From sequence record PQ400056.1: 64,000 nucleotides of DNA; one strand, 5' to 3'. Source of the stretch: a phage. Positions 31,382 to 61,118 of the stretch are shown here, one piece after another (the first letter of the stretch is position 1; each line of letters begins with the position of its first letter). Below the pieces are notes generated by a model. That model did no database searches, had not been told where the DNA came from, and saw nothing but the letters and a program-made list of their open reading frames with translations. The position numbers and the translations under genes are program-made.

Positions 31382-32017
31382 TCAAGCGAATGTAGAAAGC
31401 AAACGTTTTGTTTCTTTCAGTTGTCGTTCAAGATCTTTGCGTTTCTCTTTAAGTTGCATTTTAGCATTATTTCGCTCTCTTGTAACCTCTTTATCAATGC
31501 TCTTATTCCAGTTATCAATATCAGAATAAGTTGGCATACCCAATTCTAGACCTAATGCGGTTGGATACAGGGTAACAGTCCATAAACCGCTAATCTTCTT
31601 AAATAGGTCGGGGTGTAGTGTACTATCTACATCTTCCGGTGTCAACTCTTTTTCTTCTTTCAGTGGTGGGATCTCGTCATATGGTTCCAGTGCATTTACT
31701 TTAATATCAGATACCTCATCAAAGAATCCGCGTACATCCGCAGGAAATACACAAGCAATTTCCCAACCGTGATCACGCAGAGAAGTAATATTTTTCACTC
31801 CCCCACCATGTGTGATGATTGATGTGACATTGCCATCAAGGTCCACCGAATTTACGAGAAATGGCTTATCGTCTGTCAGATCATTATAAAACTGTGCTTC
31901 GGCTGTAGTCATCTCCAGAAACAGATCTCGGATCGGACGACCATCAGGTGCGTTACCTTCCTTGAGAGTATAAAAGCGACTTACGATCCATTTTGGCGGT
32001 AAAGCATTAGCGATCAT
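31382..32017 (-). CDS. hypothetical protein (211 aa)
   Basis: minus-strand ORF between genes 41 and 61. Confidence 0.5.
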   Translation of the reverse strand: MIANALPPKWIVSRFYTLKEGNAPDGRPIRDLFLEMTTAEAQFYNDLTDDKPFLVNSVDLDGNVTSIITHGGGVKNITSLRDHGWEIACVFPADVRGFFDEVSDIKVNALEPYDEIPPLKEEKELTPEDVDSTLHPDLFKKISGLWTVTLYPTALGLELGMPTYSDIDNWNKSIDKEVTRERNNAKMQLKEKRKDLERQLKETKRLLSTFA

Positions 32018-35192: not shown

Positions 35193-37860
35193 ACAGGTCA
35201 GTCAGAGAAGCAACTTTCTCATATTGCAGCTTTGCAGCCGTGGTAATGTTCTCCAGTGGTTTGACGAAAGTCTTATTAAACAACAAAGGCCAGTCTAACC
35301 ACTTTAACACCTCTGATTCAATTTCTGGAGGAATACGAGTACCGGACAACCAACCAAAACAGATTTCTCCAAACGGATTTCGATCTTTCAGCGGTACAAT
35401 CATAACCTTCTCGCCCTCACGAATTGGATCTAGTCCGAATTTTCGAGCATTACGATTATAACACAATACACTCTTAACCGCATACGGACAACCCTTAATC
35501 GGATACCCGTTTGAATCGCTGTATTTCTGTAGGTTGTTTGCAGATGATACCGCAGCAACCTCAAGATAATCAAGTTTTCTAAATTCTTGCTCAAAAATAC
35601 CGTAGTATTCCTGCAATGACTCTTCACCTTCCTGCAACATACGGCGAATACATTCTTTCAGTGATTTCTGACATGCTTTAGGGGTGGAGCTACGTTGCGT
35701 TTCCAAGCCCATGATTTTTAGCTTAGGTTCAGCAAAGCGCGTTCCTTCCATATCCCAAACATTAAGAGCATAACGCTTTTTGCCAGTCCAGAATCCACCG
35801 ATACCCGCAGATTTCAACGGAGGACCAGCAATTGCCTCACGGTCCATAAACATCAAGTGCTCATAGTTGTTCATGTACTCGCATAACTCGCGATATCCCT
35901 TGTCGATAATAGGTTCCATTCGATGTTTACCGAAATTATCAAGGAAGTCAACAAGTTTTTCGGTATCGTCGAAACGGTCTTCCCCGCCAACCTTATCAAC
36001 AACATTGTTAACCAGCACATAAACGGAGTCAGTATCACAATAACGAACATATGCAAAATCGGTTGTTCCGCAAAGCTCGTTTAAGTATTCGTTAATCTTA
36101 CGCTCAATCCACTGAATTGCAAGCTGACCAAACAAGGTGATCGCACTAGCGTTACGGAGATCATAAAAACGGAATTTAGGATTCCCCAACGCACCATAAA
36201 GGGAGTTGATCAAAACTTTTCGAGAAAGCTGGTTTGTATTGCACAAGATCGACTCGTCTTTACATTCTTCCAGCAATTTCTCTAAGGCATCTTTACTTAA
36301 TTCAGAAAGCATCGATTTAAACGCTTCATCAAAGTCGTGACGTACTTCAACGCTATAGCTAATGGTTCCCCCATAAACATGATTTTCATCGTGTAGAATC
36401 GCTTTACAGAGTTCAGCATTGCGATCACATGCCAACATCATGTTTTTGTACTGCTTACGCTGATCGAATACCTTTTTAATCTCAATCGGTACGATACCGT
36501 GAATATCTTTTCTATACATCCATCCGTTAGGAGAGCAAGAATACTCATCACTCGGACGTGGTGCAGTTTTATTGATATACTCGTGCATCGGTGCAGCATC
36601 AAAAGATCCGGCGATTGTTTCCGGCGAAATGTTAACCTGTCGAATAATAGATGGGTACAGACTTGTTAAGTCAAAGCTCATCATCCAACGGTAAGCATTC
36701 GGCACAGGTTCTTTTACGAATGCGCCTGGATACGTCTGCTTAGGCTGTATCTTATTTTCCGGTACTACTTTACCCTCAGCTTTCAGAGATCCGAAGATAA
36801 TAGCATCCCATACTTTCATCGGGTTATAAACATGGTTAAATTTAATCTTTGCATAGAAACATAGACTATACACAAGATCGATAAATCCACGCTTTTTATC
36901 AATCGCCAGCACACGATCAACGTCGCCGATGTTATAATCGATGTAAAGTTGATGGTTGTCATCACGCAATTTCTTTAACGGACCATCATAATCAACCTTA
37001 CCGATTCCTGTCTCATATTCAGCAACATAATCTAACGCATATGTTGGTTGAGTCGTAAAGCTAAATTTCTTGTACAGGTCAATATAATCAAGGCTTTCGA
37101 TCCCCATGATCGTAAATGCTTCACGCTCGTTGCCAAAATCATCCTGTGAGATTCGGGATTTAATCTTACCGCACGGGCTTAGACGGTTAGCGGTTCTACT
37201 TCCGAACTTATTACTGATACGTTTAATGATATATGGAATATCGAATGTTTCTGTGTTCCAGCCAGTGAAACCAACGGGTCGGTTTTCCTCAAAGAATCGG
37301 ATGTATTCTAACAGCAATTCATCTTCTGTGTCATAGACGTTATAAACAACGCGCTCTACAATATCAGGTCGAAGAATAGACTTGCTTGCTTCCCAGATTT
37401 CACCGTTTTTTCCCTTCAAATCAAATACAAAGAAACGATCATGTACTGAATCATAATGCGTAATTGCATCGATAGGATATTTCGCTTCTTCTGGTTTAGG
37501 AAATTCTGGGGCAGTGACCTCGATATCAACCCATGCTACACGGATTTTATTTCGGTCATATCGAATCTCTCCTTTATACGTATCAGACAGATAGGAGATG
37601 ATAAAATCATCCATCCCTAGCGCCTCTTGCCCCATTTCTCCCATCTTTTTACGCCATTTGTTGGCCTCGTTCATAGAGGGGAATTTTTTAGCAATGCAAG
37701 GCTTGCCATAGATATCTTTATAATTCGTAACCATACCAGGCGCGGCATGATGAAATAAAGTTGGCGTATATTCAACGTAACGCTCTTGTTCTTGTCCAGC
37801 ATCATCAATATAACGCTCGTAGATCTTATCACCTACTCGCTCACATGACAGAAAATACAT
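35182..37860 (-). CDS. 43: DNA polymerase gp43 (family B)
   Basis: VGDKIYERYID, GWNTETFDIPYI, MSFDLTSLYPSIIRQVNISPETI, YCDTDSVYV, KKRYALNVWDMEG match remembered T4 gp43; track start 37890 is GTG, ATG with AAGGAG SD at 37860. Confidence 0.95.
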   Translation of the reverse strand: MYFLSCERVGDKIYERYIDDAGQEQERYVEYTPTLFHHAAPGMVTNYKDIYGKPCIAKKFPSMNEANKWRKKMGEMGQEALGMDDFIISYLSDTYKGEIRYDRNKIRVAWVDIEVTAPEFPKPEEAKYPIDAITHYDSVHDRFFVFDLKGKNGEIWEASKSILRPDIVERVVYNVYDTEDELLLEYIRFFEENRPVGFTGWNTETFDIPYIIKRISNKFGSRTANRLSPCGKIKSRISQDDFGNEREAFTIMGIESLDYIDLYKKFSFTTQPTYALDYVAEYETGIGKVDYDGPLKKLRDDNHQLYIDYNIGDVDRVLAIDKKRGFIDLVYSLCFYAKIKFNHVYNPMKVWDAIIFGSLKAEGKVVPENKIQPKQTYPGAFVKEPVPNAYRWMMSFDLTSLYPSIIRQVNISPETIAGSFDAAPMHEYINKTAPRPSDEYSCSPNGWMYRKDIHGIVPIEIKKVFDQRKQYKNMMLACDRNAELCKAILHDENHVYGGTISYSVEVRHDFDEAFKSMLSELSKDALEKLLEECKDESILCNTNQLSRKVLINSLYGALGNPKFRFYDLRNASAITLFGQLAIQWIERKINEYLNELCGTTDFAYVRYCDTDSVYVLVNNVVDKVGGEDRFDDTEKLVDFLDNFGKHRMEPIIDKGYRELCEYMNNYEHLMFMDREAIAGPPLKSAGIGGFWTGKKRYALNVWDMEGTRFAEPKLKIMGLETQRSSTPKACQKSLKECIRRMLQEGEESLQEYYGIFEQEFRKLDYLEVAAVSSANNLQKYSDSNGYPIKGCPYAVKSVLCYNRNARKFGLDPIREGEKVMIVPLKDRNPFGEICFGWLSGTRIPPEIESEVLKWLDWPLLFNKTFVKPLENITTAAKLQYEKVASLTDLFDI

Positions 37861-37892
37861 AATATAAACTCCTTCACTTACGAAAGACACTC

Positions 37893-37921
37893 ATTATAGG
37901 GGAATCGACTTAGTTTGTCAA
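37893..37921 (-). promoter_or_regulatory. consensus sigma70-type promoter TTGACA, 17 nt, TATAAT for gene 43, embedded in an inverted repeat
   Basis: minus-strand TTGACA (37921-37916), TATAAT (37898-37893); flanked by inverted repeat ATAGGGG / CCCCTAT (37896-37930). Confidence 0.6.
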
Positions 37922-37942
37922 TACCCCTATCCCATCAGTATC

Positions 37943-38305
37943 TTATCGCCCGATCTGATATTTCTCGATCAGCGTCCACTCTTCTTTCTGTTTGAAAGAC
38001 AATACACGGAAATTATTAACTTCGGTAGTTTCAAAATCACTATCAATCAGGGTACACAGATTCCACTGCGCCAGAAGTTTTGCAATGTTATTACGGCGTA
38101 ATTCATCTTCCCACGTCATTTTAACACTACGACCATCTAATTTCAACAACTCCTTGAAATGAACGATGTAATAGCGCCCTTTCTTCTGGAGAATATGACA
38201 AGACTGATACAGTGTCTTGTCTCGATTGTTGGCAATGCCGCAGCGGGTTAAAGTTTCCTTAATTTTAAGGAAGTTTTCAGGACTAATCAAATTAATTTCA
38301 ATCAT
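37943..38305 (-). CDS. regA: translational repressor RegA
   Basis: 120 aa; IKETLTRCGIANNRDKTLYQSCHILQKKGRYYIVHFKELLKLDGR and NNFRVLSFKQKEEW match remembered T4 RegA. Confidence 0.92.
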   Translation of the reverse strand: MIEINLISPENFLKIKETLTRCGIANNRDKTLYQSCHILQKKGRYYIVHFKELLKLDGRSVKMTWEDELRRNNIAKLLAQWNLCTLIDSDFETTEVNNFRVLSFKQKEEWTLIEKYQIGR

Positions 38306-38306
38306 T

Positions 38307-38885
38307 TTACCACCTTTCTATAATCTTTTTAAGTCGTTTCCTTTCTGTCTGATTCTTAGTAACACCCGCCAAAAGTTCATCGGTCGCATACGGTTTAATG
38401 TGCTTCAATAACTTGTCCATATATCCCTTTTCATTAGCCAAATCGAGATAAAACCGGGCGTCATCCATATTTACACAATATGCTTTCGCCACTGCCATTA
38501 AAACCAATTTTTGGTCCAATTCTTCTGTTAGTTTAGCCCATTTACCGTATCGTTTCCCCTTAGAAATACTCTGTAAGAGATAATCAAAATGCATTTGATC
38601 TGGGAGGCCATGACCGATTAAATTCATCACATACGCGCTATATAGGCAATCTGCGTGCTGGGAAAGAGCGGTGTTAATCCATCTCTGGTTATATGCAGAA
38701 TTGTTTCCCACATTAACGCGCTGTTTATCTAAGGTGATATGATCCATCAGAGCAAATAATGCATTGTCGGTTTTCTCGGTGAATGTGTCCGCTAATTCAG
38801 ACACCTTTTCCCAATCACGAGAGCGCCATGCAATTTCATGCTCGTTTAATTGTGTATCATCTTCACCGAAAAATTGACCTAACAT
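38307..38885 (-). CDS. 62: clamp loader small subunit gp62
   Basis: 192 aa; QLNEHEIAW, YVMNLIGHGL, KGKRYGKWAKL match remembered T4 gp62. Confidence 0.88.
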   Translation of the reverse strand: MLGQFFGEDDTQLNEHEIAWRSRDWEKVSELADTFTEKTDNALFALMDHITLDKQRVNVGNNSAYNQRWINTALSQHADCLYSAYVMNLIGHGLPDQMHFDYLLQSISKGKRYGKWAKLTEELDQKLVLMAVAKAYCVNMDDARFYLDLANEKGYMDKLLKHIKPYATDELLAGVTKNQTERKRLKKIIERW

Positions 38886-39859
38886 TATACGAACTCCAAT
38901 TCAACCATTAATTGCATTAACAAAAAGACAATGTGAATCTCTTTATCAGCCGCGTGCGCAAACATCTGATTATTTTCACCAATAATCTCGGTCAGACGAA
39001 TAATAGACGCTGGCTTAACTTGAGTATACAACTCATTATAAAGTTTCTTGACAAATTGAGCGTATGTATTGGTATAGCGTGGCGCGAGTTTACGCACATT
39101 AGCAAACTGTTTAGTTTTAAGTGCTTCCACCACATCGGTTACTTCGGTATTGCTACTTTCGATAACCATGCTCAATACGCCAGCATCAATTTTACCATGT
39201 TTAGCGTAGCGGTCCAAAAGTTTCATTACGCGTCGGAAGTCTGGGAAGTTCTGCTTAACCAATTCCGCTAATACGCGCATTTCTTCTACTGGTACACCTT
39301 CTTTATCAAGAATTGCTTTACACCGGACGATCATTTCTTTCATCATGCGAAGCTGATCATCTTTAGTCGGAGATCCAAACGTGATGGGGTCAAAACGAGA
39401 TCGTAACGCTGGGATAATACCTTCTAGATCGTTTGCTGTGATAATGAATGTTACATTGTTTGAGTATGCCTCAGAGAAACTACGCAAGTGTCTTTGAGCA
39501 TCAGCTAGCCCCGCTCGGTCATACTCATCGATAATAACAACTTTGCCTTTTTCTCGTTTTTCTTCATCGAGTGATACACTCTGCGCAAAGCGTGTAATCT
39601 CATCTCGGATAAAATCAATCTTACAATCTGCGCCGTTAACAAACAGATAATCAACACCCACATCTTCGCAAAGCGCCTTAGCAACGGTTGTTTTACCAGT
39701 ACCCGGCGATGGGCTATGCAGAATCATTGAAGGGATTCGGCCTTGCTTAACAATCTGCGCGAAGATCTTTTTATCTGCTTCCGGCAGAATACATTCAGAA
39801 ATTGATTTCGGACGGTATTTCTGTTCCCACTGAAACTCATTTTCATTAACACTCAGCAT
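38885..39859 (-). CDS. 44: clamp loader large subunit gp44 (AAA+)
   Basis: EQKYRP, ILHSPSPGTGKTTVAKAL, VIIDEYDR, PDFRRVM, HIVFLLMQL match remembered T4 gp44; ATG with GAGGTG SD at 39859 (track start 39874 is GTG). Confidence 0.92.
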   Translation of the reverse strand: MLSVNENEFQWEQKYRPKSISECILPEADKKIFAQIVKQGRIPSMILHSPSPGTGKTTVAKALCEDVGVDYLFVNGADCKIDFIRDEITRFAQSVSLDEEKREKGKVVIIDEYDRAGLADAQRHLRSFSEAYSNNVTFIITANDLEGIIPALRSRFDPITFGSPTKDDQLRMMKEMIVRCKAILDKEGVPVEEMRVLAELVKQNFPDFRRVMKLLDRYAKHGKIDAGVLSMVIESSNTEVTDVVEALKTKQFANVRKLAPRYTNTYAQFVKKLYNELYTQVKPASIIRLTEIIGENNQMFAHAADKEIHIVFLLMQLMVELEFV

Positions 39860-48713: not shown

Positions 48714-48872
48714 TTACTTAATGATACTTACTTTACCAGATCCATGACAATGAGCGCAACACCCATCACCACGCAATCCTGTTCCGTTACAGTGTTTACA
48801 CTTCTTCAACGGTAAAGCCATTATAGCAAATAAAGCAATAATGAATACCGAAACTAAATTCTCAATAATCAT
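48714..48872 (-). CDS. small membrane-anchored DnaJ-type zinc-finger protein (52 aa)
   Basis: not in the ORF track; hydrophobic N-terminus then CKHCNGTG and CAHCHGSG (two CxxCxGxG repeats); ATG 48872 with GAGGG SD, overlaps the nrdH stop by 11 nt. Confidence 0.4.
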   Translation of the reverse strand: MIIENLVSVFIIALFAIMALPLKKCKHCNGTGLRGDGCCAHCHGSGKVSIIK

Positions 48873-49131
48873 AAATCGCCCTCAGTTCTTTATAGCCTCC
48901 AATGTGCTCGTTGTCAATGAATATCTGGGGGTATACAAACCGGAGGCTCTTTGAGTTTAGCCTCCCCGCCAGTTCTTCAATCATATCACGGTCGGGAATA
49001 ATGTCAACCCCGACCTGCTTGAATACTGGTTTAAGTGTATACGGAATACCCAGATCATCCAGTAGCTTCATTGCACTAATACAACCATAACAATGATAAG
49101 CCTCTTTCGGTATACCGTATATCTCGATCAT
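48862..49131 (-). CDS. nrdH: NrdH-like glutaredoxin
   Basis: 89 aa; redox motif CYGC near N-terminus; position upstream of nrdG/nrdD as in T4. Confidence 0.7.
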   Translation of the reverse strand: MIEIYGIPKEAYHCYGCISAMKLLDDLGIPYTLKPVFKQVGVDIIPDRDMIEELAGRLNSKSLRFVYPQIFIDNEHIGGYKELRAIYDY

Positions 49132-49625
49132 TTCTCAGCCTTTAATCTTTCTAGTTCTTCTTCCAGTTCCTTGATCCGTTGGTCACGTTCAAAGTCACGC
49201 TGTAGCTTAGTGGCAAATACTCGCTTAAACTGATTGTAATCATCGATTTTAAACACTTCTTCTTCGCCATAGCGACGTACAGAAACTTCGTAGTTGTTGA
49301 AAAATTGTTCCAACATTGCATCAGTAGTCAGTTCTGACGACACCACTTTAAAATAACGTTCTTCTGATTGCAAAAACCAGTTGTGCGCGTATTCCCGTAC
49401 ATCATCAACATCTCGACAGGTGTATGTTTTTCCATCAATTTCAATCGCAGAAACATATTCGATATCTGACGCAATTTTTTCAAAAGCGATAACTTTAAAT
49501 GTACGGTCACCGATAAAGTCTGCTATTGCATCATTTGCAACACTGGTTGCAAATGCTTTCCGCGCTCGCTCGTTTTTCCACTGATAGGTCATACCAACAA
49601 CAAACATATTACCATCAACAAACAT
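49128..49625 (-). CDS. paralogous-family protein (WExGKTY family), member 1
   Basis: MTYQWKNERARKAF...FKVIAFEKI...IEIDGKTY...RYFKVV resembles the neighbouring paralogs; N-terminus has an 18-bp tandem duplication; start uncertain (several in-frame ATGs 49592-49649). Confidence 0.45.
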   Translation of the reverse strand: MFVDGNMFVVGMTYQWKNERARKAFATSVANDAIADFIGDRTFKVIAFEKIASDIEYVSAIEIDGKTYTCRDVDDVREYAHNWFLQSEERYFKVVSSELTTDAMLEQFFNNYEVSVRRYGEEEVFKIDDYNQFKRVFATKLQRDFERDQRIKELEEELERLKAEK

Positions 49626-49634
49626 ATTACCAAC
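49599..49634 (-). repeat. 18-bp tandem duplication (2 copies, 17/18 identical)
   Basis: plus-strand AACAAACATATTACCATC then AACAAACATATTACCAAC; duplicates GNMFVD/GNMFVV codons. Confidence 0.8.
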
Positions 49635-50451
49635 CTCGCTCTTTACCAATCAAAAATTCAACTTCACGACGTTTAATGTCTTCTTGAAGGTCTTTAATCT
49701 TCTGGCGATCTTGCATGATTTCATCCATCTTGTCAAGTGCCGCAATGAAATCATCGAAACGTTCAAAGGTTTTACCTTCATTTGCTTCGCCAAATTTAAC
49801 CATTGTCAGGCCGTAACGACTACTAAACAGACGTTTCAACTGTCCAACGATCTTAGAATCAGTGGTTATAACTTCCAATTCTTCTACTTCACGAAAGAAT
49901 TTTCTATCAGAATCAATAAACCAGCTAGTTCCTTTATGGTCTCTATCTTCGGTTGCGCTCATTAGAGTATGGTCTTTACCATCAATTTCAATTACATCAA
50001 TTTGCCCACATGGACTAACATTTTTAACAGTAAAAGGTCTATAATTTATTGCTCGTGCAATAACATAATTAAGGTTAGATACGTTTTCAGCATAATGGCA
50101 GAAGTCGGTCATAGCATTCGCATCTTTCCAAGTATAAGTTTTACCAACTTCCCATTTCTGGGGAACTTCTTCAACTTCACGAAAGAATTTTCTATCGAAT
50201 GGACTAAAGAAATATGTGGCAGTCCAAATGTCTTTTCCTGTAGCAGTTTTCGCCGTATGATAAACACCGTCTAGCTCTATTGCATCAATCCAACCGTTAC
50301 CATCGATCTCGATGATGGTAAATGGCTTGTCACCAATAGCTGCACTAATATCGCTGTTAAGTGGAGAAAGAACACCTTCTCCGTTAGTAATAAACTCAGT
50401 TTTAGCGTTTTCATCTTTCCAGGTGTAGGTTTTACCAATTTCCCATTTCAT
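49627..50451 (-). CDS. paralogous-family protein, member 2 (internal two-fold repeat)
   Basis: 274 aa; MKWEIGKTYTWKDENA ... DRKFFREVEE repeated as QKWEVGKTYTWKDANA ... DRKFFREVEE. Confidence 0.55.
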   Translation of the reverse strand: MKWEIGKTYTWKDENAKTEFITNGEGVLSPLNSDISAAIGDKPFTIIEIDGNGWIDAIELDGVYHTAKTATGKDIWTATYFFSPFDRKFFREVEEVPQKWEVGKTYTWKDANAMTDFCHYAENVSNLNYVIARAINYRPFTVKNVSPCGQIDVIEIDGKDHTLMSATEDRDHKGTSWFIDSDRKFFREVEELEVITTDSKIVGQLKRLFSSRYGLTMVKFGEANEGKTFERFDDFIAALDKMDEIMQDRQKIKDLQEDIKRREVEFLIGKERGW

Positions 50452-50463
50452 AATATATTCCCC

Positions 50464-50964
50464 TTAACCGATTTTATCAAGTTCGTTTAATGCTTTCTCT
50501 GCTTCCTGTATAGCTTGCACTCTTTCCGGCATTTTGTCAAGAAAATCTTTCAACTCTTCAAAACTGGAGATATGACGCAAGGCATTAGCACCGATAGCCG
50601 CATGTGATTTGCATTCAAAGCGAATTTTATAATTATCCATCGCCAATTTGAGAAGGTCTATTAGATCATATTCATGACCAGGCAATAAAACTTCTTTGAA
50701 GCACGCTCGGTCGCCATCGGAAAACCATATATTATCACCAACATCGATAGAACTAATATAATCCCCTTCGTGATTATAGATTGAACGTACATTACCCCAA
50801 CGGTCTACCGTAGCGACAGTAAATGGTTTATCTAGATATGTAAACACACCATCAATATTAGGTTTTTGTTCGTAACGCCAACAATCACGCAAAATGCGCT
50901 TTTCGTCCTCACCAACCAACTTATATGTCTTCCCTTCTTCCCATTTCATAATATCATCTCTCAT
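50464..50964 (-). CDS. paralogous-family protein, member 3
   Basis: 166 aa; MKWEEGKTYKL ... DRACFKEV plus coiled-coil C-terminus. Confidence 0.55.
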   Translation of the reverse strand: MRDDIMKWEEGKTYKLVGEDEKRILRDCWRYEQKPNIDGVFTYLDKPFTVATVDRWGNVRSIYNHEGDYISSIDVGDNIWFSDGDRACFKEVLLPGHEYDLIDLLKLAMDNYKIRFECKSHAAIGANALRHISSFEELKDFLDKMPERVQAIQEAEKALNELDKIG

Positions 50965-51491
50965 TTTTTGATACGTGATTCTAATTGGATCATACGGTCG
51001 CGCGTTTGCTTGTATTCGCGGATAGCACCGATCCGGCTAGGCATACCATCAAGCACGCTCTTAATCCCTTCTAGGGTAGTGATTTTAGCAATGCTATTAT
51101 GTAACCCCATCTTATCGATCAACTGAATGTCGTAGGCTTCCATAAGCAGACCCAGACGTTCTAAAGTTAGGTCTTCTTCTTTTTCTTCCGATTCTGGAAT
51201 CTTAGGTTCAATAATAACTTCGGTAAAGAAACGACGCTCACCCGACCAAAACCACACACCGGAACAGCCAATAGGGGATTCTTTTAACGTCATAGAGTCG
51301 AAATCACTACCGATAATAGTAATTTCTCTAACATCACCATCATCGTCAATGTCTTCTACCCTAAACGGGCGACCAGCCAACAAGTCAACAATACATCTGT
51401 TAATAGACGACGAAAATTTAGTCAGTTCGGCTTTCGACGCTTCGCATTCAATCTTGTAAGTTTTACCAACTTCCCATTCCATAATAATCAC
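50961..51491 (-). CDS. paralogous-family protein, member 4
   Basis: 176 aa; MEWEVGKTYKI ... ERRFFTEV plus coiled-coil C-terminus. Confidence 0.55.
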   Translation of the reverse strand: MIIMEWEVGKTYKIECEASKAELTKFSSSINRCIVDLLAGRPFRVEDIDDDGDVREITIIGSDFDSMTLKESPIGCSGVWFWSGERRFFTEVIIEPKIPESEEKEEDLTLERLGLLMEAYDIQLIDKMGLHNSIAKITTLEGIKSVLDGMPSRIGAIREYKQTRDRMIQLESRIKK

Positions 51492-51492
51492 C

Positions 51493-51996
51493 TCAAATAA
51501 TTTTCACTGGAATACTATTAACAATCTTGTATTGTACTTGATTGTCAGACCCCCGCCACGGCTTCTTCGTTGGCATATCTTTAATATAACGCCCATCGAT
51601 GAACATGTCAACTGATTCTACAATTTTTCTTTGCTCATCATTCAATTGGTCAAGGGTATAACCGGACCATAGCCAAATATCTTTATTTGGCATCCATGAT
51701 TTTACTTCATCGATGATCCGCTGTACACCCTTTAAATTGCGTTTATACAGTGGATCGCCACCTAAGAATGTTAGCCCCTGAATAAAATCAGGTCTAAGCA
51801 GGTCCAGAATCAATCCCATTGTATCATCGGTGAATGGTTCCCCGTTCTTAGGATTGAGTAGGCTAGCATTAAAGCAACCATCACATGCGTGTGAACATCC
51901 GGTAACGTAAAGGGAGACTCTCACTCCCTCACCGTTAACCATATCACAATCTTTAATATCGGCATAGCGTAGTTTGCCGTATGTATCAGAACTCAT
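51493..51996 (-). CDS. nrdG: anaerobic ribonucleotide reductase activating protein NrdG (radical SAM)
   Basis: CSHACDGC (CxxxCxxC), GLTFLGGDPLY, KDIWLWSGY, KPWRGSDNQ match remembered T4 NrdG; ATG 51996 (track start is TTG). Confidence 0.88.
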   Translation of the reverse strand: MSSDTYGKLRYADIKDCDMVNGEGVRVSLYVTGCSHACDGCFNASLLNPKNGEPFTDDTMGLILDLLRPDFIQGLTFLGGDPLYKRNLKGVQRIIDEVKSWMPNKDIWLWSGYTLDQLNDEQRKIVESVDMFIDGRYIKDMPTKKPWRGSDNQVQYKIVNSIPVKII

Positions 51997-52213
51997 ATTC
52001 AATTACCCCGAACTCGTTTACAATCTGCGCTTTATAGTAACCACCGCGAGATGCTAATAGATAAGCTGGGCTTAGGTATTCGTATTCACGGATTTCTACT
52101 TGTGCGTTTTCAGTTTCCCAAATCAGTAAAGTCCACATATTTGATTCTCCTGTAAAGTTGTATCTCGTCTTGATGAATATAGTATAGGGGATCTCGCGAT
52201 CCCCGTCAAGCAT
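51986..52213 (-). CDS. hypothetical protein (75 aa)
   Basis: minus-strand ORF just outside the inverted-repeat arm. Confidence 0.4.
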   Translation of the reverse strand: MLDGDREIPYTIFIKTRYNFTGESNMWTLLIWETENAQVEIREYEYLSPAYLLASRGGYYKAQIVNEFGVIEYEF

Positions 52214-52741
52214 TTATTTTAAATTTTTTCGAATGTAGTCAGACCATTCCTTCCCTGTCAGTTCGGTCCCATTCTGGAAACTGAAATATTCATACGGCAT
52301 CGAGTCAAGATAAAACAGGATCATACATCGCGCCATATAATACCAATCACGATTAAAGTAAACTACGTTATCGCCAGTACCATCAGCACCTTTATCATAA
52401 CCATCGCGGGTACGGGCGACCCATTGAATAGTATCATTTTTCTCACGGATCGTAACAGGTTCCCAATATCCAGCACATCCAGCATGACCACACGAACAAG
52501 TAATGAAATATTGTCCTTTTGCTTTGTTGTCATCCCATTCACGATGGATTGGTTCGATCTCGTGAAACAGTGCTAAGCAATCATGATTATGCAACACTGG
52601 CTTACCATCAATCAATGCATGGAATGTATACAAACGACCCGTAGACAAATAGCTATCCTCACGCTCAACCAGTTCAATAGCAATCTTTTTAGCTCGTTCT
52701 TTGTGTCGTTGTGCTTTACGCTTACGGTTTAATGATTTCAT
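52214..52741 (-). CDS. hypothetical Cys/His-rich protein (175 aa)
   Basis: basic N-terminus MKSLNRKRKAQRHKERAKK; HNHDCLALFHEIEPIHREW and CSCGHAGCAGYW suggest metal binding; ATG 52741 with GAGGTGA SD. Confidence 0.5.
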   Translation of the reverse strand: MKSLNRKRKAQRHKERAKKIAIELVEREDSYLSTGRLYTFHALIDGKPVLHNHDCLALFHEIEPIHREWDDNKAKGQYFITCSCGHAGCAGYWEPVTIREKNDTIQWVARTRDGYDKGADGTGDNVVYFNRDWYYMARCMILFYLDSMPYEYFSFQNGTELTGKEWSDYIRKNLK

Positions 52742-52758
52742 ATTCACCTCACACATTA

Positions 52759-53298
52759 TCAAAGGTCGCGATATAGTACATTATGAAAATGAGAACTTGC
52801 ATTACCAATATTGTAGATAATAAATTCTTCATCCGGCGCTTGCGCTACAAATTGAGTATGAGCAACCGCCACAACCTTAAAAATACGATCCGTGATCTTG
52901 TGTTTAATTTCTGCCCCTACTTCCATAGGAACATATTCATTTGTTTCTGTTTCAGTCGCAAAACAGCCATCTTCTTCATAAGCACGAACAAATCGATCGC
53001 AATCAGTACGCTTAACAAATTCAAGAGTATACAATTCTCGTGAATTGTCGGTATAGACCAATACAGAATTATTATGATAGCGAATCACATACAGGTTATT
53101 ATCATCGTCAATTACGCAAAAGCTACGGATTCCTTCGCCTTTACTCCAGCAGATATTAACCACCGTTCCTCTAATAAAAAAACTTTCCTTTAAATTAAAA
53201 CTAGTCAATGTGCTAGCGTGCATTTTAACAACAACACCATCGCCAATTTCCAGTTTACGAAGTTTAACTTCTTTGTTCAGTACACAAAACATCATCAT
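52759..53298 (-). CDS. hypothetical protein (179 aa)
   Basis: first gene after the nrdD terminator-promoter pair; ATG 53298 with GAGAGG SD. Confidence 0.5.
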   Translation of the reverse strand: MMMFCVLNKEVKLRKLEIGDGVVVKMHASTLTSFNLKESFFIRGTVVNICWSKGEGIRSFCVIDDDNNLYVIRYHNNSVLVYTDNSRELYTLEFVKRTDCDRFVRAYEEDGCFATETETNEYVPMEVGAEIKHKITDRIFKVVAVAHTQFVAQAPDEEFIIYNIGNASSHFHNVLYRDL

Positions 53299-53327
53299 GT
53301 TGTCCTCTCGTTGTTTTCGATGTGAGC

Positions 53328-53355
53328 ATTATACATTAGCTAATCATGTTGTCAA
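53328..53355 (-). promoter_or_regulatory. consensus sigma70-type promoter TTGACA, 16 nt, TATAAT
   Basis: minus-strand TTGACA (53355-53350), TATAAT (53333-53328); mirrored on the plus strand at 56596-56623 in the inverted copy. Confidence 0.6.
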
Positions 53356-53361
53356 CACCCC

Positions 53362-53393
53362 AAAACGAAAAAGCCGACCCTTTCGGATCGGCT
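53362..53393 (-). terminator. rho-independent terminator after nrdD
   Basis: minus-strand AGCCGATCCGAAAGGGTCGGCT followed by TTTTCGTTTT. Confidence 0.6.
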
Positions 53394-53398
53394 GAAAT

Positions 53399-55262
53399 TT
53401 ACATGTGCTTAACGCGGTTTACCATCTCGGAGTGTTTCCCGTGGTTGAATGGACGCAGATCAACAGATCCAAGATATCCACTAACGCGACGGATAACATT
53501 CATCTTTTCCAGATTGTCATTACCGCAATCAGGACAAACAAAACCAGACTCGGTCGCTCTCATTTCCTTAGTAGATCCGCATACATGACATACATCAGAA
53601 GGAGTATTAACACCGAAGTAGTGCAATTTATCCATTGCATAGTCTACTACAGTTTCAAGACCTTTCAGGTTGTTTTTCATGTCTGGGAACTCAACATAAG
53701 AGATCATGCCACCGGACGCCAGCCAGTGATAATCTTTCTCAAAGTCAATTTTCTCAAATGGAGTGACTTTCCGGTCTACGTCAAGGTGGAATGAGTTGGT
53801 GTACCAGTCTTTATCGGTAGCACCCTTAACAATACCAAATTGCTCTCGGTCCAGTCGATTAAATCGATAGCAAAGGCTCTCGGCTGGAGTACCGTAAAGA
53901 CTAAACCCAAGTCCGGTTTCGTCCTTCCATTTTTCAGTATAATGACGCAAGATCTTAAGAATATGTTTACCGTATCGCTGCGCATCTTCCGAATCAAACG
54001 GATGAACACCAAACAGGACGCTCAATACCTCATGTAAACCAATATATCCAAGAGAGATACTAGCGCGACCATCTTTCAACACTTCCAAAATTTCATCGTT
54101 TTGATGAATACGGAAAAACGCACCTTCGGTATACAGCACCGGAGCAACATTGGCTTTAGCCCCTTTTAAAGCGTCTACGCGACTCATGAGCGCATCAAAG
54201 CAAATAGGCATACGATTGGCTAGCTCTTGTTCGAATAGCTCAATTCTGCGCATTACAGACGCTTTACCAGCACGACGCGCGGCAATAAGGGCAATACGCG
54301 GAAGATTCAGGGTCACAACACCCAAGTTATTACGTCCGTCTAATACTTCTTCTCCTTTCTCATTATGCCACACACCCAGGAAGCTACGACAACCCATCGG
54401 GCTAACCGGAACACTAGATCCGGTGATACTACGGTTATTCTTCGCAGAGATATAATCAGGGTAAAGACGCTTACTAGAACATTCCAATGCAAGTTGCTTA
54501 ATGTCGTAGTTCGGATCTTCCGGTTTAAGGTTTAATCCTTCTTCTAAGAACATCACCAGCTTAGGAAACACCGGAGTGATACCATCTTTACCTAAACCTT
54601 TAGTTCGAACGTTCAGGATCGCTTTCTGAATCAGTTTTTTCTTCCCAGCTAGTACCCATACCAAAGGTTAAAGTCACAAAAGGCGTTTGACCGTTGGTGG
54701 AGAACAAAGTGTTGATTTCATATTCCAACGCCTGATATCCGTCTAACGTTTCTTTTTCTGTTTTCTCTTGTGCATAGAGAGTATCAGCTTTGATTCCGTA
54801 GGTTTCGGCATCAGCAAGGTGTTTATAATATGTTTTCTCAACATACGGTGCTAACACCTGATCGATGTTTGCGATTGTGGTCCCGCCATATTGATGACTT
54901 GCCACCTGTGCGATAATTTGAGCGGTTACAGCACAAGCAACGCCGATTGATTTCGGACTTTCGATTTGTGCGCTACCCAATTTAAAACCATTCTCTAACA
55001 TGTCTTTGAGATTAACAAGACAGCAGTTAGTAAACGGCATAGCGGGTGCATAATCCATATCATGATAATGAATGTCACCGTCTACATGCGCTTTATAGAT
55101 GTGCTCAGGTAACACGGTTTTAGCAATCTGTTTAGACACAGCACCAGCAATCAGATCTCGACGTGTCGGGAATGTTCGCGCGTCTTTGTTCGCGTTCTCT
55201 TTGCTTACTTCGTTTTCTTTACCCGTTGCGATCTCTGTAATGTCTTTGATTAGTTTTTCCAT
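53399..55262 (-). pseudogene. nrdD: anaerobic ribonucleotide reductase NrdD, interrupted by a 1-nt frameshift in an A6 run
   Basis: N-terminal ORF 54600-55262 (ENANKDARTFPTRRDL, FTNCCLVNLKDMLENGFKLG, TFGMGTSW) and C-terminal ORF 53399-54664 (LIQKAILNVRTKGLGKDGITPVFPKLV ... C-terminal CPDCG zinc ribbon) match remembered T4 NrdD; frames join if the A run at 54635-54640 (minus strand) is 5 nt; no intron. Confidence 0.85.
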
Positions 55263-55404: not shown

Positions 55405-57721
55405 TAGAAGAAGGATTAAACCTTAAACCGGAAGATCCGAACTACGACATTAAGCAACTTGCATTGGAATGTTCTAGTAAGCGTCTTTACCCTGATTATA
55501 TCTCTGCGAAGAATAACCGTAGTATCACCGGATCTAGTGTTCCGGTTAGCCCGATGGGTTGTCGTAGCTTCCTGGGTGTGTGGCATAATGAGAAAGGAGA
55601 AGAAGTATTAGACGGACGTAATAACTTGGGTGTTGTGACCCTGAATCTTCCGCGTATTGCCCTTATTGCCGCGCGTCGTGCTGGTAAAGCGTCTGTAATG
55701 CGCAGAATTGAGCTATTCGAACAAGAGCTAGCCAATCGTATGCCTATTTGCTTTGATGCGCTCATGAGTCGCGTAGACGCTTTAAAAGGGGCTAAAGCCA
55801 ATGTTGCTCCGGTGCTGTATACCGAAGGTGCGTTTTTCCGTATTCATCAAAACGATGAAATTTTGGAAGTGTTGAAAGATGGTCGCGCTAGTATCTCTCT
55901 TGGATATATTGGTTTACATGAGGTATTGAGCGTCCTGTTTGGTGTTCATCCGTTTGATTCGGAAGATGCGCAGCGATACGGTAAACATATTCTTAAGATC
56001 TTGCGTCATTATACTGAAAAATGGAAGGACGAAACCGGACTTGGGTTTAGTCTTTACGGTACTCCAGCCGAGAGCCTTTGCTATCGATTTAATCGACTGG
56101 ACCGAGAGCAATTTGGTATTGTTAAGGGTGCTACCGATAAAGACTGGTACACCAACTCATTCCACCTTGACGTAGACCGGAAAGTCACTCCATTTGAGAA
56201 AATTGACTTTGAGAAAGATTATCACTGGCTGGCGTCCGGTGGCATGATCTCTTATGTTGAGTTCCCAGACATGAAAAACAACCTGAAAGGTCTTGAAACT
56301 GTAGTAGACTATGCAATGGATAAATTGCACTACTTCGGTGTTAATACTCCTTCTGATGTATGTCATGTATGCGGATCTACTAAGGAAATGAGAGCGACCG
56401 AGTCTGGTTTTGTTTGTCCTGATTGCGGTAATGACAATCTGGAAAAGATGAATGTTATCCGTCGCGTTAGTGGATATCTTGGATCTGTTGATCTGCGTCC
56501 ATTCAACCACGGGAAACACTCCGAGATGGTAAACCGCGTTAAGCACATGTAAATTTCAGCCGATCCGAAAGGGTCGGCTTTTTCGTTTTGGGGTGTTGAC
56601 AACATGATTAGCTAATGTATAATGCTCACATCGAAAACAACGAGAGGACAACATGATGATGTTTTGTGTACTGAACAAAGAAGTTAAACTTCGTAAACTG
56701 GAAATTGGCGATGGTGTTGTTGTTAAAATGCACGCTAGCACATTGACTAGTTTTAATTTAAAGGAAAGTTTTTTTATTAGAGGAACGGTGGTTAATATCT
56801 GCTGGAGTAAAGGCGAAGGAATCCGTAGCTTTTGCGTAATTGACGATGATAATAACCTGTATGTGATTCGCTATCATAATAATTCTGTATTGGTCTATAC
56901 CGACAATTCACGAGAATTGTATACTCTTGAATTTGTTAAGCGTACTGATTGCGATCGATTTGTTCGTGCTTATGAAGAAGATGGCTGTTTTGCGACTGAA
57001 ACAGAAACAAATGAATATGTTCCTATGGAAGTAGGGGCAGAAATTAAACACAAGATCACGGATCGTATTTTTAAGGTTGTGGCGGTTGCTCATACTCAAT
57101 TTGTAGCGCAAGCGCCGGATGAAGAATTTATTATCTACAATATTGGTAATGCAAGTTCTCATTTTCATAATGTACTATATCGCGACCTTTGATAATGTGT
57201 GAGGTGAATATGAAATCATTAAACCGTAAGCGTAAAGCACAACGACACAAAGAACGAGCTAAAAAGATTGCTATTGAACTGGTTGAGCGTGAGGATAGCT
57301 ATTTGTCTACGGGTCGTTTGTATACATTCCATGCATTGATTGATGGTAAGCCAGTGTTGCATAATCATGATTGCTTAGCACTGTTTCACGAGATCGAACC
57401 AATCCATCGTGAATGGGATGACAACAAAGCAAAAGGACAATATTTCATTACTTGTTCGTGTGGTCATGCTGGATGTGCTGGATATTGGGAACCTGTTACG
57501 ATCCGTGAGAAAAATGATACTATTCAATGGGTCGCCCGTACCCGCGATGGTTATGATAAAGGTGCTGATGGTACTGGCGATAACGTAGTTTACTTTAATC
57601 GTGATTGGTATTATATGGCGCGATGTATGATCCTGTTTTATCTTGACTCGATGCCGTATGAATATTTCAGTTTCCAGAATGGGACCGAACTGACAGGGAA
57701 GGAATGGTCTGACTACATTCG
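55405..57721. repeat. inverted repeat arm 2: inverted duplicate of nrdD 3' part, terminator, promoter and two ORFs
   Basis: track ORFs 55464-56552, 56653-57192 and 57189-57800 duplicate the 53399-54664, 52759-53298 and 52214-52762 products; the last acquires a different C-terminus past the repeat boundary at 57721. Confidence 0.9.
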
Positions 57722-57800: not shown

Positions 57801-58060
57801 GACCTGATTTATTGGGGTAAATTTTAGGTGAAATCACTGTATAAAAAATTAAAGGGGCTGAGGATATAAATAAAATAAAATGGAGAGCCAAAGAGTCTCA
57901 GGGAACCTCCAGAAAAAAAGGGGAGGGGGGGGGGGAGAGAGTATTTATTAGTGGGTGTGGCTGTCGGGGAATTTTTATGAGGGGAATTGATGGTTCAAAT
58001 TGATTAAAAAGATGGGCTGCATATAAAAAGGGATCGGGAAAAAATATCTAAAACAGTAAC
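57801..58060. other. purine-rich low-complexity bridge with no coding capacity (probable chimeric junction)
   Basis: strong A/G bias with very few C, G run of 11 at 57925-57935, GGGGAGAGAG-type strings; separates AT-rich phage sequence from GC-rich P2-like sequence. Confidence 0.6.
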
Positions 58061-58166
58061 TCATCCAAGCATCACACATCACTATGCCGACACAGAAGAC
58101 ACCGTGCTGGAAATTCAGCGGCTGGCTACCGTCTGCCGCGACACCCTGAATGGCATGACGAAGTAA
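58061..58166 (+). other. 3' fragment of a truncated upstream ORF of the P2-like replication region
   Basis: open frame ...HPSITHHYADTEDTVLEIQRLATVCRDTLNGMTK ending 7 nt before the gene A start; 5' part absent. Confidence 0.3.
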
Positions 58167-58172
58167 ATCACT

Positions 58173-60938
58173 ATGACGGCAGAGCACATCAGGGACTGGC
58201 AACAACCGCGCCACGCAGTGGGGCGTGAAGGAACGGGGATCCCCGCTCCTGAATCCGCGCTTTCCTCCTGGCTGGATGCCTACCGGGCAGAGAACGAGCG
58301 CCGCAAGGAAATGGCTGATGCGGCGTTCTCCGCCACGCCGCTGGGCAACCTGATTAATAAAAGCCTGGACGCACAGGAAAAACAGGACAAAACCATCACA
58401 CTGGCAGGAGACGCCAGAAAACAGGCACGCGGCGCAGTGGATGAAGCCATGGCCTCGCTGCGCCTGCTGCCGTCCTATCTGCGCGATCCGCTTATTCGCC
58501 ACCTCTCCTTCCTGCGCAAAAAACAGGAAGCCGATCGCCGGAAAGGCAAAAAGAGCTGGCAGGCGGAACGCTATGCACGCGGAACCCTGCGCAAAATATT
58601 CGAACGTCTGGACCGCACCGATCACCGCTGGCTGACACCGGGTTATCGCTCCCTTGCCGGACGCGAACGCCTGGACGATTTGCTTTACCTGCCGCAGCTC
58701 AACAAACACCAGATACAGACGCTGGCCACCATGACGGCGGCGATGTTCAGCAGCACCTTCGAAAAACTCTGCGATGGCTTTGGCGCGACCGATGGCGAGC
58801 TGACCATGGATGTAACGCTGAAGGCGTATCAGATGCTGGCCCGCATGGCGTTACACCTGCACGCCATGCCTCCACATTATGACGCACTGACAACAGACAA
58901 AGACCGGAGGAACGAACCAGACACGGAGCTGCTGCCGGGCGCAATCCTTCGCCTGACCTGTGCGGAATGGTGGAAACGCAAACTGTGGCTGTTACGTTGC
59001 GAGTGGCGGGAAGAACAACTCCGCGCCGCCTGTCTGGTTTCCAGAAAAACATCGCCCTATCTGAGCCAGGACGCGTTAAGCGAGTTTCGCGCACAGCGCG
59101 AGAAAACACGCGATTTCCTGAAAAGTTTCATGCTGGAAAATGAAGACGGGTTCACGATTGATCTCGAGACGGTGTATTACGCGGGAGTAAGTAACCCGGT
59201 TCACCGTAAGGCAGAAATGATGGCCACCATGAAGGGACTGGAACTTCTGGCCGAAGCCCGTGGCGACAGAGCGGTGTTTCTGACCGTCACCTGCCCGTCA
59301 AAATACCACGCAACAACGGAGAACGGTCATCCGAACCCCAAATGGAACGGGGCCACCATGCGCGACTCCAGCGATTACCTGGTTAACACGTTTTTTGCGG
59401 CGGTCCGCAAAAAACTGAACCGCGACGGCCTGCGCTGGTATGGCATCCGCACGGTGGAGCCTCACCATGACGGCACTGTGCACTGGCATATGATGGTCTT
59501 TGCACATCCGGACGAGATTGAAACCATCGTGTCCCACGTCTGCGATATTGCCATTCAGGAGGACCGCCACGAGCTGGGCGATGACATAACTCCGCGTTTT
59601 AAGGCGGAGTATGTCGACGGCTCAAAAGGCACACCAACCAGCTACATCGCCACCTACATCGGAAAGAACCTGGACAGCCGCGCCGTGGATGGCATCGACC
59701 CGAAAACGGGCAAGCCACGCGTTGACCACGAAACCGGAAAATCAATGGCCGAGAGCGTGGAGCGCGCCATCGGCTGGGCGCGCCTTCACCGGGTCCGTCA
59801 GTTCCAGTTCTTTGGCATCCCCTCCCGTCAGGTGTGGCGTGAACTGCGCCGCCTTGCCAGCCAGATGGCACGCAATCCGGAAGGCCCGCAACGGCTGAAA
59901 GATGATGCAATGGATGCGGTACTCGCTGCCGCCGATGCCGGGTGTTTTGCCACCTACATTGAAAAACAGGGTGGCGTGCTTGTTCCACGCAAGGACTACC
60001 TGATTCGCACCGCCTACGACCTCGCAGATGAGCTGAACGATTACGGCGAACAGAGCGTACAGATTTACGGGATCTGGTCACCACTCATCGGGGAATCCTC
60101 CCGTGTGTGCACGCATCCGGATAACTGGAAATTGGTAAGACGTAAACCAGAACCAGAAGACAACGCCCACGAAAATGGTTTTGACCTTCAGGGCGGCCCT
60201 GCCGCCCCTTGGACTCGTGGCAATAACTGTCCCCGTGTACAGGAAACAGGCAACAGCGGGACAGAACAGTCGGAAGAACGGCCAGCACCGTGGCCGCAGC
60301 TTCCTGACGGCGTTGATGTGGATGAATGGATGCGCTCACTGAAACGGCACGAACGCCGGGCGCTGATGCGTTCGCTGCGTGACAAACAGGCAAAAAACAA
60401 CAGTGATGAAATGCAGAACTGGACACAGAGCCGCAAACAGCCGCGGCCTTTGCCTGATAACCACGAGTTACTCGCTAAAGAATGGCGGGAGTCTGCCGAA
60501 TCTCTCGGCCTGCATATCGGTGAACAACAGATGCTGCACCTGTTACGGGGCGGCAGTCTGTACGTTGACGGCAGCATCATTGCGCCGCAGGGATATGAAA
60601 TTGTATGTAAACCGGATACCCGACCGGACAGCCGAATCACGCAACTCTGGCAGCGCCTGAGTCGTAATCACAGCGTAAACAGCACGGAAATCCGCCATAA
60701 CCCGGTTTCCAGCTATCTGAAACAGCTCGGGGCATCAGACCCAGAAGCCGCCGCACGCCTGGCATCCACAATTCAGCAGGACCAGAACACCATGAAAACT
60801 CCCGTTACCGTGCTTTCTGACATGCTGCGCGCCATCCGTGACGCAGAGCACGCACAGAGAATCAATGAAACCACTGAACGCGCACGTCACAAGGCGGGTC
60901 TGTTGCAGGGCAAAGGCAATAGCGAGAAGAAAAAATAA
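58173..60938 (+). CDS. A: P2-type replication initiation protein A (HUH rolling-circle endonuclease)
   Basis: 921 aa, GC-rich; HUH motif VHWHMMVF and dual-tyrosine motif YIATYIGKN typical of the P2/186 gpA family; minus-strand track ORFs inside it are judged spurious. Confidence 0.85.
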   Translation: MTAEHIRDWQQPRHAVGREGTGIPAPESALSSWLDAYRAENERRKEMADAAFSATPLGNLINKSLDAQEKQDKTITLAGDARKQARGAVDEAMASLRLLPSYLRDPLIRHLSFLRKKQEADRRKGKKSWQAERYARGTLRKIFERLDRTDHRWLTPGYRSLAGRERLDDLLYLPQLNKHQIQTLATMTAAMFSSTFEKLCDGFGATDGELTMDVTLKAYQMLARMALHLHAMPPHYDALTTDKDRRNEPDTELLPGAILRLTCAEWWKRKLWLLRCEWREEQLRAACLVSRKTSPYLSQDALSEFRAQREKTRDFLKSFMLENEDGFTIDLETVYYAGVSNPVHRKAEMMATMKGLELLAEARGDRAVFLTVTCPSKYHATTENGHPNPKWNGATMRDSSDYLVNTFFAAVRKKLNRDGLRWYGIRTVEPHHDGTVHWHMMVFAHPDEIETIVSHVCDIAIQEDRHELGDDITPRFKAEYVDGSKGTPTSYIATYIGKNLDSRAVDGIDPKTGKPRVDHETGKSMAESVERAIGWARLHRVRQFQFFGIPSRQVWRELRRLASQMARNPEGPQRLKDDAMDAVLAAADAGCFATYIEKQGGVLVPRKDYLIRTAYDLADELNDYGEQSVQIYGIWSPLIGESSRVCTHPDNWKLVRRKPEPEDNAHENGFDLQGGPAAPWTRGNNCPRVQETGNSGTEQSEERPAPWPQLPDGVDVDEWMRSLKRHERRALMRSLRDKQAKNNSDEMQNWTQSRKQPRPLPDNHELLAKEWRESAESLGLHIGEQQMLHLLRGGSLYVDGSIIAPQGYEIVCKPDTRPDSRITQLWQRLSRNHSVNSTEIRHNPVSSYLKQLGASDPEAAARLASTIQQDQNTMKTPVTVLSDMLRAIRDAEHAQRINETTERARHKAGLLQGKGNSEKKK

Positions 60939-61118
60939 CCAAGAAAGAAATCATCAATTGTATGAAGGTAGAGTTTAGACATGGTAAGGACGTTCCATGA
61001 GGCACACTGTAATTTCATATAGTATTCCTCTTCCCTGTTTGATAAAAAAGTGCAATACTATAAATAGTCCAGTTAAATGTTTTTTCAATTCACTTAAAAT
61101 CAAGAGGTTACAGTTAAG

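Follow-up and report, generated by a model that had tools for sequence, protein, structure and literature searches.

A four-gene array of the GoF family between nrdG and nrdH of an RB49-like phage, probably old, diverged, and recombining

Four consecutive minus-strand open reading frames (ORFs) lie at positions 49128-51491, between nrdG (51493-52002) and nrdH (48862-49131), in a 64,000-nucleotide (nt) stretch of phage DNA (PQ400056.1; the whole stretch is called the window here) whose sequence identifies the phage as an RB49-like Krischvirus. The four genes, designated A to D, share an N-terminal domain of ∼90 amino acids (aa) and a helical tail. The explanation that we favor, with a probability of roughly three in four, is that they form an old array of the GoF family, that their barrel domains are binding modules, and that the copies recombine. 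Within this explanation, the family assignment and the evolutionary picture are jointly very probable: the array represents a Krischvirus-specific subfamily (phrog_5347) of the GoF/Frd.2/MotB.1 family and consists of old, diverged paralogues. The counterparts in RB49 (RB49p048-051) and other relatives are annotated “hypothetical protein” in all records inspected, and a literature search found no paper describing the four-gene array. A family name and a confident predicted fold can now be attached to these genes.

Domain repeats and family membership

The array and its distant relative in the window comprise the following genes.

50961-51482, minus strand: gene A, 173 aa from the ATG at 51482 (an upstream GTG at 51491 is a possible start); predicted GoF-like N-terminal barrel (aa 1-91), disordered acidic linker, and helical C-terminal domain
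50464-50949, minus strand: gene B, 161 aa from the ATG at 50949; one GoF-like domain and a tail homologous to the tail of A
49627-50451, minus strand: gene C, 274 aa; domains C1 (50164-50451) and C2 (49876-50163), followed by a tail
49128-49625, minus strand: gene D, 165 aa if translated from the first ATG and 159 aa if from the second (49607); its GoF-like domain is the most diverged of the array and is followed by a tail
31382-32017, minus strand: Dc2-type GoF-like protein, 211 aa, 17 kb from the array; orthologue of RB49 Dc2 (RB49p021)

Gene A is preceded by a GAGGTGA Shine-Dalgarno sequence 7 nt ahead of its ATG, and gene B has an alternative ATG at 50964 that overlaps the stop codon of A.

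A hidden Markov model (HMM) built from the repeat units detected five domain copies in the array, each with an expect value (E) of 4e-33 or better. Two of these copies lie in the 274-aa protein C (2e-40 and 3e-42), as the initial annotation had claimed; its estimate of about six copies is one too many for the array itself, and the sixth is the distant protein at 31382-32017, which the model made from the five array units only detected at an E of 8e-6 and which matches phrog_16187 over its full length. Domains C1 and C2 are 51% identical in aa and 57% in nt sequence (pairwise BLASTP E, 6e-28), eight other pairs of units gave BLASTP E values of 1e-15 to 2e-4, and the B/D pair was not significant by direct BLASTP (E, 1.3). 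Identity between genes is 25 to 37% at the aa level. Positions G6, T8, Y9, N28, F40, I54, F78, F86, and V89 are conserved in an alignment of all five units and their tails, so that homology extends well beyond the short N-terminal motif. The tails are homologous too: A and B align across 170 residues (BLASTP E, 1e-15), and the proteins match phrog_5347 in full length, over approximately positions 1 to 165 of its 165 (E values of 7e-67 for A, 3e-59 for B, 2e-93 for C, and 2e-54 for D). The proposal of four paralogous genes with a common ∼90-aa domain is therefore sound, although the motifs by which the domain had been described, WExGKTY and RxFFxEV, are degenerate in D (FVVGMTY ... ERYFKVV) and partly so in B (RACFKEV).

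Several lines of evidence place the domain in the GoF/Frd.2/MotB.1 family. First, all four proteins match phrog_622 (E, 5e-19 to 3e-4; 2e-10 for A), the PHROG family that includes both T4 GoF and T4 Frd.2, and they also match three PHROG families labelled “goF mRNA metabolism modulator.” Second, the relationship is reciprocal: T4 GoF matches phrog_5347 at an E of 6.5e-7, and the HMM of the five array units matches residues 4 to 90 of T4 GoF. Third, hhalign comparison of a 58-sequence alignment of the array family with 16 GoF orthologues gave a probability of 97% (E, 8e-11) over 89 columns of the N-terminal domain. The array had been described as a family of unknown function; the PHROG and hhalign results identify its domain as the GoF-type N-terminal barrel, and a confident model of this barrel (see below) agrees. 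Pfam and NCBIfam scans of A to D, Dc2, and GoF found no significant family, an Rfam scan of the window gave no match, and Pfam FRD2 (PF03197), against which T4 Frd.2 scores 133 bits, did not match A to D at E values up to 1.

RB49-type phages have a much larger GoF family than T4, where only three members (GoF, Frd.2, plus MotB.1) have been described. An iterated HMM found 12 GoF-type domains in nine genes of the RB49 genome: five in p048-p051, three in p058, and one each in Dc2/p021, p057, p059, and p060; this count is a lower bound, as the model did not recruit T4 Frd.2 or MotB.1. Genes p057-p060 form a second cluster at 36433-39070 of RB49, just beyond nrdD, so that two clusters flank the nrdG-nrdD block for anaerobic ribonucleotide reductase. 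Within this cluster, p058 (392 aa, with three tandem domains) carries the annotation “frd.2 / goF mRNA metabolism modulator”; in RefSeq, both it and p059 have a goF-like label. The same two-cluster layout around nrdG-nrdD occurs in an IMG/VR Krischvirus contig. Outside Krischvirus the subfamily is rare: a set of 5.8 billion holds 129 protein clusters, and those with long contigs all have the genome size of Krischvirus. A profile search of 1.84 billion protein representatives gave 55 matches, about one-quarter of which were proteins of ∼500 to 2,500 aa with several short matched stretches and were taken as spurious.

The Dc2 orthologue in the window has a coiled-coil-like tail of its own and sits directly downstream of helicase gene 41, whose mRNA is the one affected by the D25Y variant of T4 GoF; the adjacency may be coincidence.

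Conservation, recombination, and the C/D junction

The array DNA is 90 to 98% identical to 59 GenBank Krischvirus records (RB49, JSE, Phi1, GEC-3S, ECD7, and others), most of it is present in at least 52 of the 59, and every Krischvirus relative inspected has the four genes in this layout between nrdG and nrdH. Ratios of nonsynonymous to synonymous substitution (dN/dS) are 0.12 to 0.51; the array genes are real and under purifying selection. One could suspect decaying junk or an artefact of misassembly, as rightward of the locus the window is a chimera, with a perfect inverted repeat followed by a P2-like segment. However, the rearrangement does not reach the array, which is collinear with 59 independent genomes and whose ORFs are all intact under the constraint given above. 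Misassembly of the array was rejected because of this collinearity, and the junk-or-artefact explanation as a whole is effectively refuted.

The arms of the inverted repeat, each of 2317 nt, lie at 52230-54546 and 55405-57721 and are separated by an 858-nt spacer. The Krischvirus segment with the 3′ part of nrdD and the homologues of RB49p055 and RB49p054 doubles back just upstream of nrdD, which is probably a fold-back chimera made in assembly or sequencing. As a result, the window lacks the homologues of RB49p057-p060 that are expected beyond nrdD. Further to the right, the G+C fraction rises from ∼0.40 to 0.57 at ∼58000-61000, and 58062-60883 matches the P2-like phage P88 at 96.7% identity in the region of the replication endonuclease; these two features indicate that the right end of the window is not Krischvirus DNA and that the contig is chimeric. 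The nrdD region (53399-55262) is split into overlapping ORFs at 53399-54664 and 54600-55262, which implies that the frame shifts near 54600-54664, just beyond the arm of the inverted repeat.

Sequence variation among relatives is concentrated in the array. The products of nrdG and nrdH and a gp55.2-like protein are 97 to 100% identical across relatives, whereas identity falls to 77% in D, 73% in C, and 65% in B. Synonymous divergence (dS) of the divergent array alleles is 0.36 to 0.59, compared with 0.03 to 0.05 for nrdG. Such high values next to near-invariant flanks point to allele exchange, i.e., mosaic replacement. Gene C varies in domain number: it has a single domain in E26 (C1 plus tail) and apparently also in ELT4 and AV108, protein clusters P0057 and P0059 are likewise C1 plus tail, and P0055 is a C1(1-13)/C2 hybrid. 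Single-domain and hybrid forms are as expected from unequal crossing-over, since the ends of C1 and C2 are near-identical and include a 23-nt perfect run at the 3′ end. In a Krischvirus-like contig of the Logan assembly SRR11185258 (3001-3938), a 154-aa fusion of A(1-50) to the tail of C (P0069) lies between nrdG and nrdH; B is apparently absent and D is frameshifted, which hints that the array is dispensable.

The array had been presented as an actively expanding gene family. Its copies are instead old (25 to 37% identity) and constrained, the layout is stable, and the variation consists of domain loss, possible fusion, and allele replacement; we conclude that the array is ancient, recombining, and occasionally contracting and that it is not actively expanding. 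Within Krischvirus, the layout recurs at every locus inspected and C has one or two domains; an IMG/VR scan for related loci returned two Krischvirus contigs only, which confines the comparison of copy number to this genus.

An 18-bp tandem duplication had also been described, as fresh and as carried by the first member of the array.

49592-49634, no strand assigned: tandem duplication found by Tandem Repeats Finder; period 18, 2.4 copies, 92% match, one mismatch

The duplication is real, but it is not inside a gene body. The repeat unit contains ...TGGTAATATGTTTGTTG..., with the TAA stop codon of C and the ATG start codon of D, and the duplication thus spans the junction of the two genes. By alignment, the window and ELT3 have the 18-bp insertion, and G5211, ECD7, and GEC-3S do not. 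In the unduplicated allele, GTTGGTA (or TGGTA) occurs twice, 18 bp apart. Direct repeats like these are a classic substrate for slipped-strand duplication, and the sequence suggests that the duplication most likely arose by slippage between them. Gene C is unchanged, its stop codon included, and D acquires an additional in-frame ATG upstream, for which the GAGG Shine-Dalgarno sequence is retained, so that the product of D would likely carry six extra N-terminal residues at most (MFVDGN). Little structural effect of these residues is expected, because the first seven residues precede β1 in the model based on A. A role of the duplication as a new start or a gene fusion was rejected: it is merely an in-frame copy of the stop/start junction.

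Nor is the duplication private to this genome. A survey with an 86-nt probe across the C/D junction matched 46 GenBank records, of which five carry the duplication (ELT4 and phiS, both 100% identical, MIZ4, MIZ5, and ELT3) and 30 are without it; for the other 11, the alignment covered only about half of the probe. It is also found in an IMG/VR Krischvirus contig and in the metagenomic protein clusters P0089 and P0102. Its presence in five other sequenced phages and in these metagenomic sequences establishes it as a real segregating polymorphism and not a sequencing artefact; being shared with at least five other phages and adding no domain, it is no sign of expansion. A parallel exists in T4: in gut-on-a-chip experimental evolution, a goF allele that had lost 21 bp in frame from its acidic region reached a frequency of 72% (PMC9271167), indicating that small in-frame indels arise and spread readily in the GoF family.

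The variation described above could also reflect a fast-turnover counter-defence or host-range cassette, in which each paralogue acts against a different host factor and alleles are exchanged in an arms race. The array is a hypervariable island between almost invariant flanks, the dS of its alleles is 10-fold above that of nrdG, and domains have been gained or lost and possibly fused; moreover, RB49 carries 12 domains in nine genes, and the family is phage confined (the 55 representatives among 1.84 billion proteins). Set against this are dN/dS values below 1 throughout, with no whole-gene positive selection, the failure to find anti-defence homology, and the stable four-gene layout across the Krischvirus relatives examined. 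We regard such a cassette as improbable and prefer an old accessory array of the GoF family that recombines under constraint.

Predicted fold, expression, and possible roles

AlphaFold2 modelling of protein A gave a mean predicted local distance difference test score (pLDDT) of 77, with ∼88 for the N-terminal domain; the linker (residues 93 to 102) scored <50 and is predicted to be disordered. Modelled alone, the N-terminal domain reached a pLDDT of 90.2 and a predicted template modelling score of 0.82. Its nearest neighbors in the PDB are FeoA and the SH3-like domains of the IdeR type, in agreement with the closest relatives published for the GoF/Frd.2/MotB.1 N-terminal β-barrel, which was termed an “LSm-like fold” (PMC12152347). 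No Hfq or Sm protein was among the top 60 structural neighbors, and the Sm fold (an N-terminal helix plus five bent strands) was not recovered; the two helices of the domain lie between β1 and β2, as in FeoA. For these reasons, the predicted N-terminal fold is called SH3-like or FeoA-like, not LSm. Foldseek searches of viral models found relatives in many large myoviruses, mostly of the T4 type, including Aeromonas phages Aeh1, phiAS5, and 65.2, phages of Proteus, Edwardsiella, and Morganella, Citrobacter phage Moon, and Dc2 of ECD7. The C-terminal domain of A is modelled as a helix (105 to 117), a β-hairpin, and a long helix (137 to 172). A coiled-coil tail, as initially described, is thus borne out in part, by the 36-residue helix and by a weak coiled-coil match to the JIP3 leucine zipper (E, 0.019), the only match in a PDB sequence search with the family profile.

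Candidate expression signals were found on the minus strand around nrdG.

51583-51611, minus strand: sigma-70-like promoter match (TTGACA-17-TATATT, 11 of 12 positions), a candidate early promoter that lies ∼100 nt upstream of A, within the 3′ end of nrdG
53393-53372, minus strand: terminator-like hairpin downstream of nrdD
53355-53328, minus strand: perfect sigma-70 promoter match (TTGACA-16-TATAAT) following the hairpin, downstream of nrdD

From 53328 to 48500, nothing resembling a terminator was detected. The hairpin and promoter at 53393-53328 likely mark the start of a unit that would be transcribed across nrdG and the array as far as nrdH.

Published work on T4 offers the main guide to function. 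Members of the GoF/Frd.2/MotB.1 family are early, abundant, and nonessential, and the GoF(D25Y) variant stabilizes mRNA with the gene 41 leader, raising the half-life of a reporter with this 5′ untranslated region (PMC12152347). A second substitution, G84R, suppresses restrictive rho alleles. The position aligned with G84, just before the FF(x)EV motif, is R in A, K in C1, K in C2, and R in D, with A in B and G in Dc2.

From these elements we suggest the following. (i) An ancient tandem duplication very probably produced the array of four paralogues and five domains, which is presently reshuffled by homologous and unequal recombination between conserved domain ends and by the swapping of diverged alleles between co-infecting Krischviruses. 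(ii) Like T4 goF, the array would be expressed in the prereplicative period, on a transcript shared with nrdG and nrdH, and would encode nonessential accessory proteins. (iii) The acidic, SH3-like or FeoA-like barrel may be a binding module for a host or phage macromolecule of gene expression or mRNA turnover, as GoF genetics suggests; its ligand may be RNA, the suggestion of Kim et al., or else a protein belonging to the machinery of transcription or RNA decay. (iv) The C-terminal helix may serve in self-association, as GoF and MotB.1 each migrate in part as dimers and the tail shows a weak similarity to a leucine zipper. The biochemical role in (iii), drawn by analogy with GoF, is tentative and considerably less probable than the family assignment.

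Several observations weigh against parts of this explanation. The C-terminal domains of the array proteins are not homologous to that of GoF, the hhalign match being confined to the N-terminal domain. Wild-type GoF and MotB.1 had no clear effect on reporter mRNA, and D25Y is a gain-of-function change (PMC12152347); even for GoF itself, this makes “mRNA metabolism” a weak label. The array proteins are acidic (isoelectric points of 4.8 to 5.1), as are their N-terminal domains (4.5 to 5.3; net charge, −3 to −7), which does not favor direct binding of RNA. The promoter calls are consensus matches, and such matches in the region are not enriched over shuffled sequences. The A/C fusion comes from a single Sequence Read Archive assembly and may be a natural contraction or an assembly error across paralogues.

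Two more specific modes of action were considered. In the first, proposed for GoF by Kim et al., the proteins would be LSm/Hfq-like RNA chaperones that stabilize phage or host transcripts directly, with paralogues differing in RNA specificity. Homology of the array domain to GoF, the longer reporter half-life with GoF(D25Y), and a K or R at the G84-aligned site in four of the five array domains all fit this idea, and the negative charge and the predicted fold described above do not; we consider it unlikely. In the second, the barrels would be Tudor/KOW-like protein-protein adaptors that dock on components of host transcription or termination, namely, RNA polymerase, Rho, NusG, or ribosomal partners. 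Such docking would account for the genetic interaction of goF with rho, and we give this mode a low probability as well. The less specific proposal of an old GoF-family array with barrel binding modules, whatever their ligand, is the one that we retain.

A broader speculation is that the array, the p057-p060 cluster, and Dc2 make up a 12-domain repertoire of GoF-type adaptors, diversifying by allele exchange and domain shuffling, which would act as a modular arsenal for host takeover or counter-defence. We think this improbable; if it were true, each barrel would be directed at a host factor of its own, for instance a component of the degradosome, Rho, or RNA polymerase, or a defence protein. 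In any case, experiments on the GoF family could be guided by the natural variants, among them alleles with one or two domains, chimeras, and basic residues where GoF has G84.

Comparison with known systems

The resemblance to FeoA and to the SH3-like domains of DtxR and IdeR is one of fold only, with 11 to 15% identity and no sequence similarity. In contrast to these proteins, the array has no FeoB or metal-regulator context (its neighbors are nrdG and nrdH) and lacks metal-binding histidines, and no Pfam or NCBIfam match places its products in the FeoA family. With Hfq and other LSm proteins, the array domain shares a small, bent, five-stranded antiparallel β-sheet, the analogy proposed for GoF by Kim et al. 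(PMC12152347).

Closer relatives are encoded in the same genome as RB49p048-p051. RB49p057-p060 and Dc2 have a GoF-like domain but belong to other PHROG families (phrog_8944, 13003, and 16187, rather than 5347) and have different C-terminal parts.

The nearest characterized system is T4 GoF (comC-alpha). Both have a homologous N-terminal barrel of ∼90 aa with FeoA and IdeR SH3-like structural neighbors (PMC12152347), followed by a flexible acidic linker and a small C-terminal domain in an acidic protein; both are confined to T4-type phages and sited among prereplicative genes. RB49, tandem arrays, and paralogues are not mentioned by Kim et al. in their 2025 study (PMC12152347). The two differ in that identity is only ∼24% and the array has a C-terminal domain of its own, common to its four paralogues; and whereas the T4 genes are single and scattered, those of the array stand in tandem and include one two-domain member.

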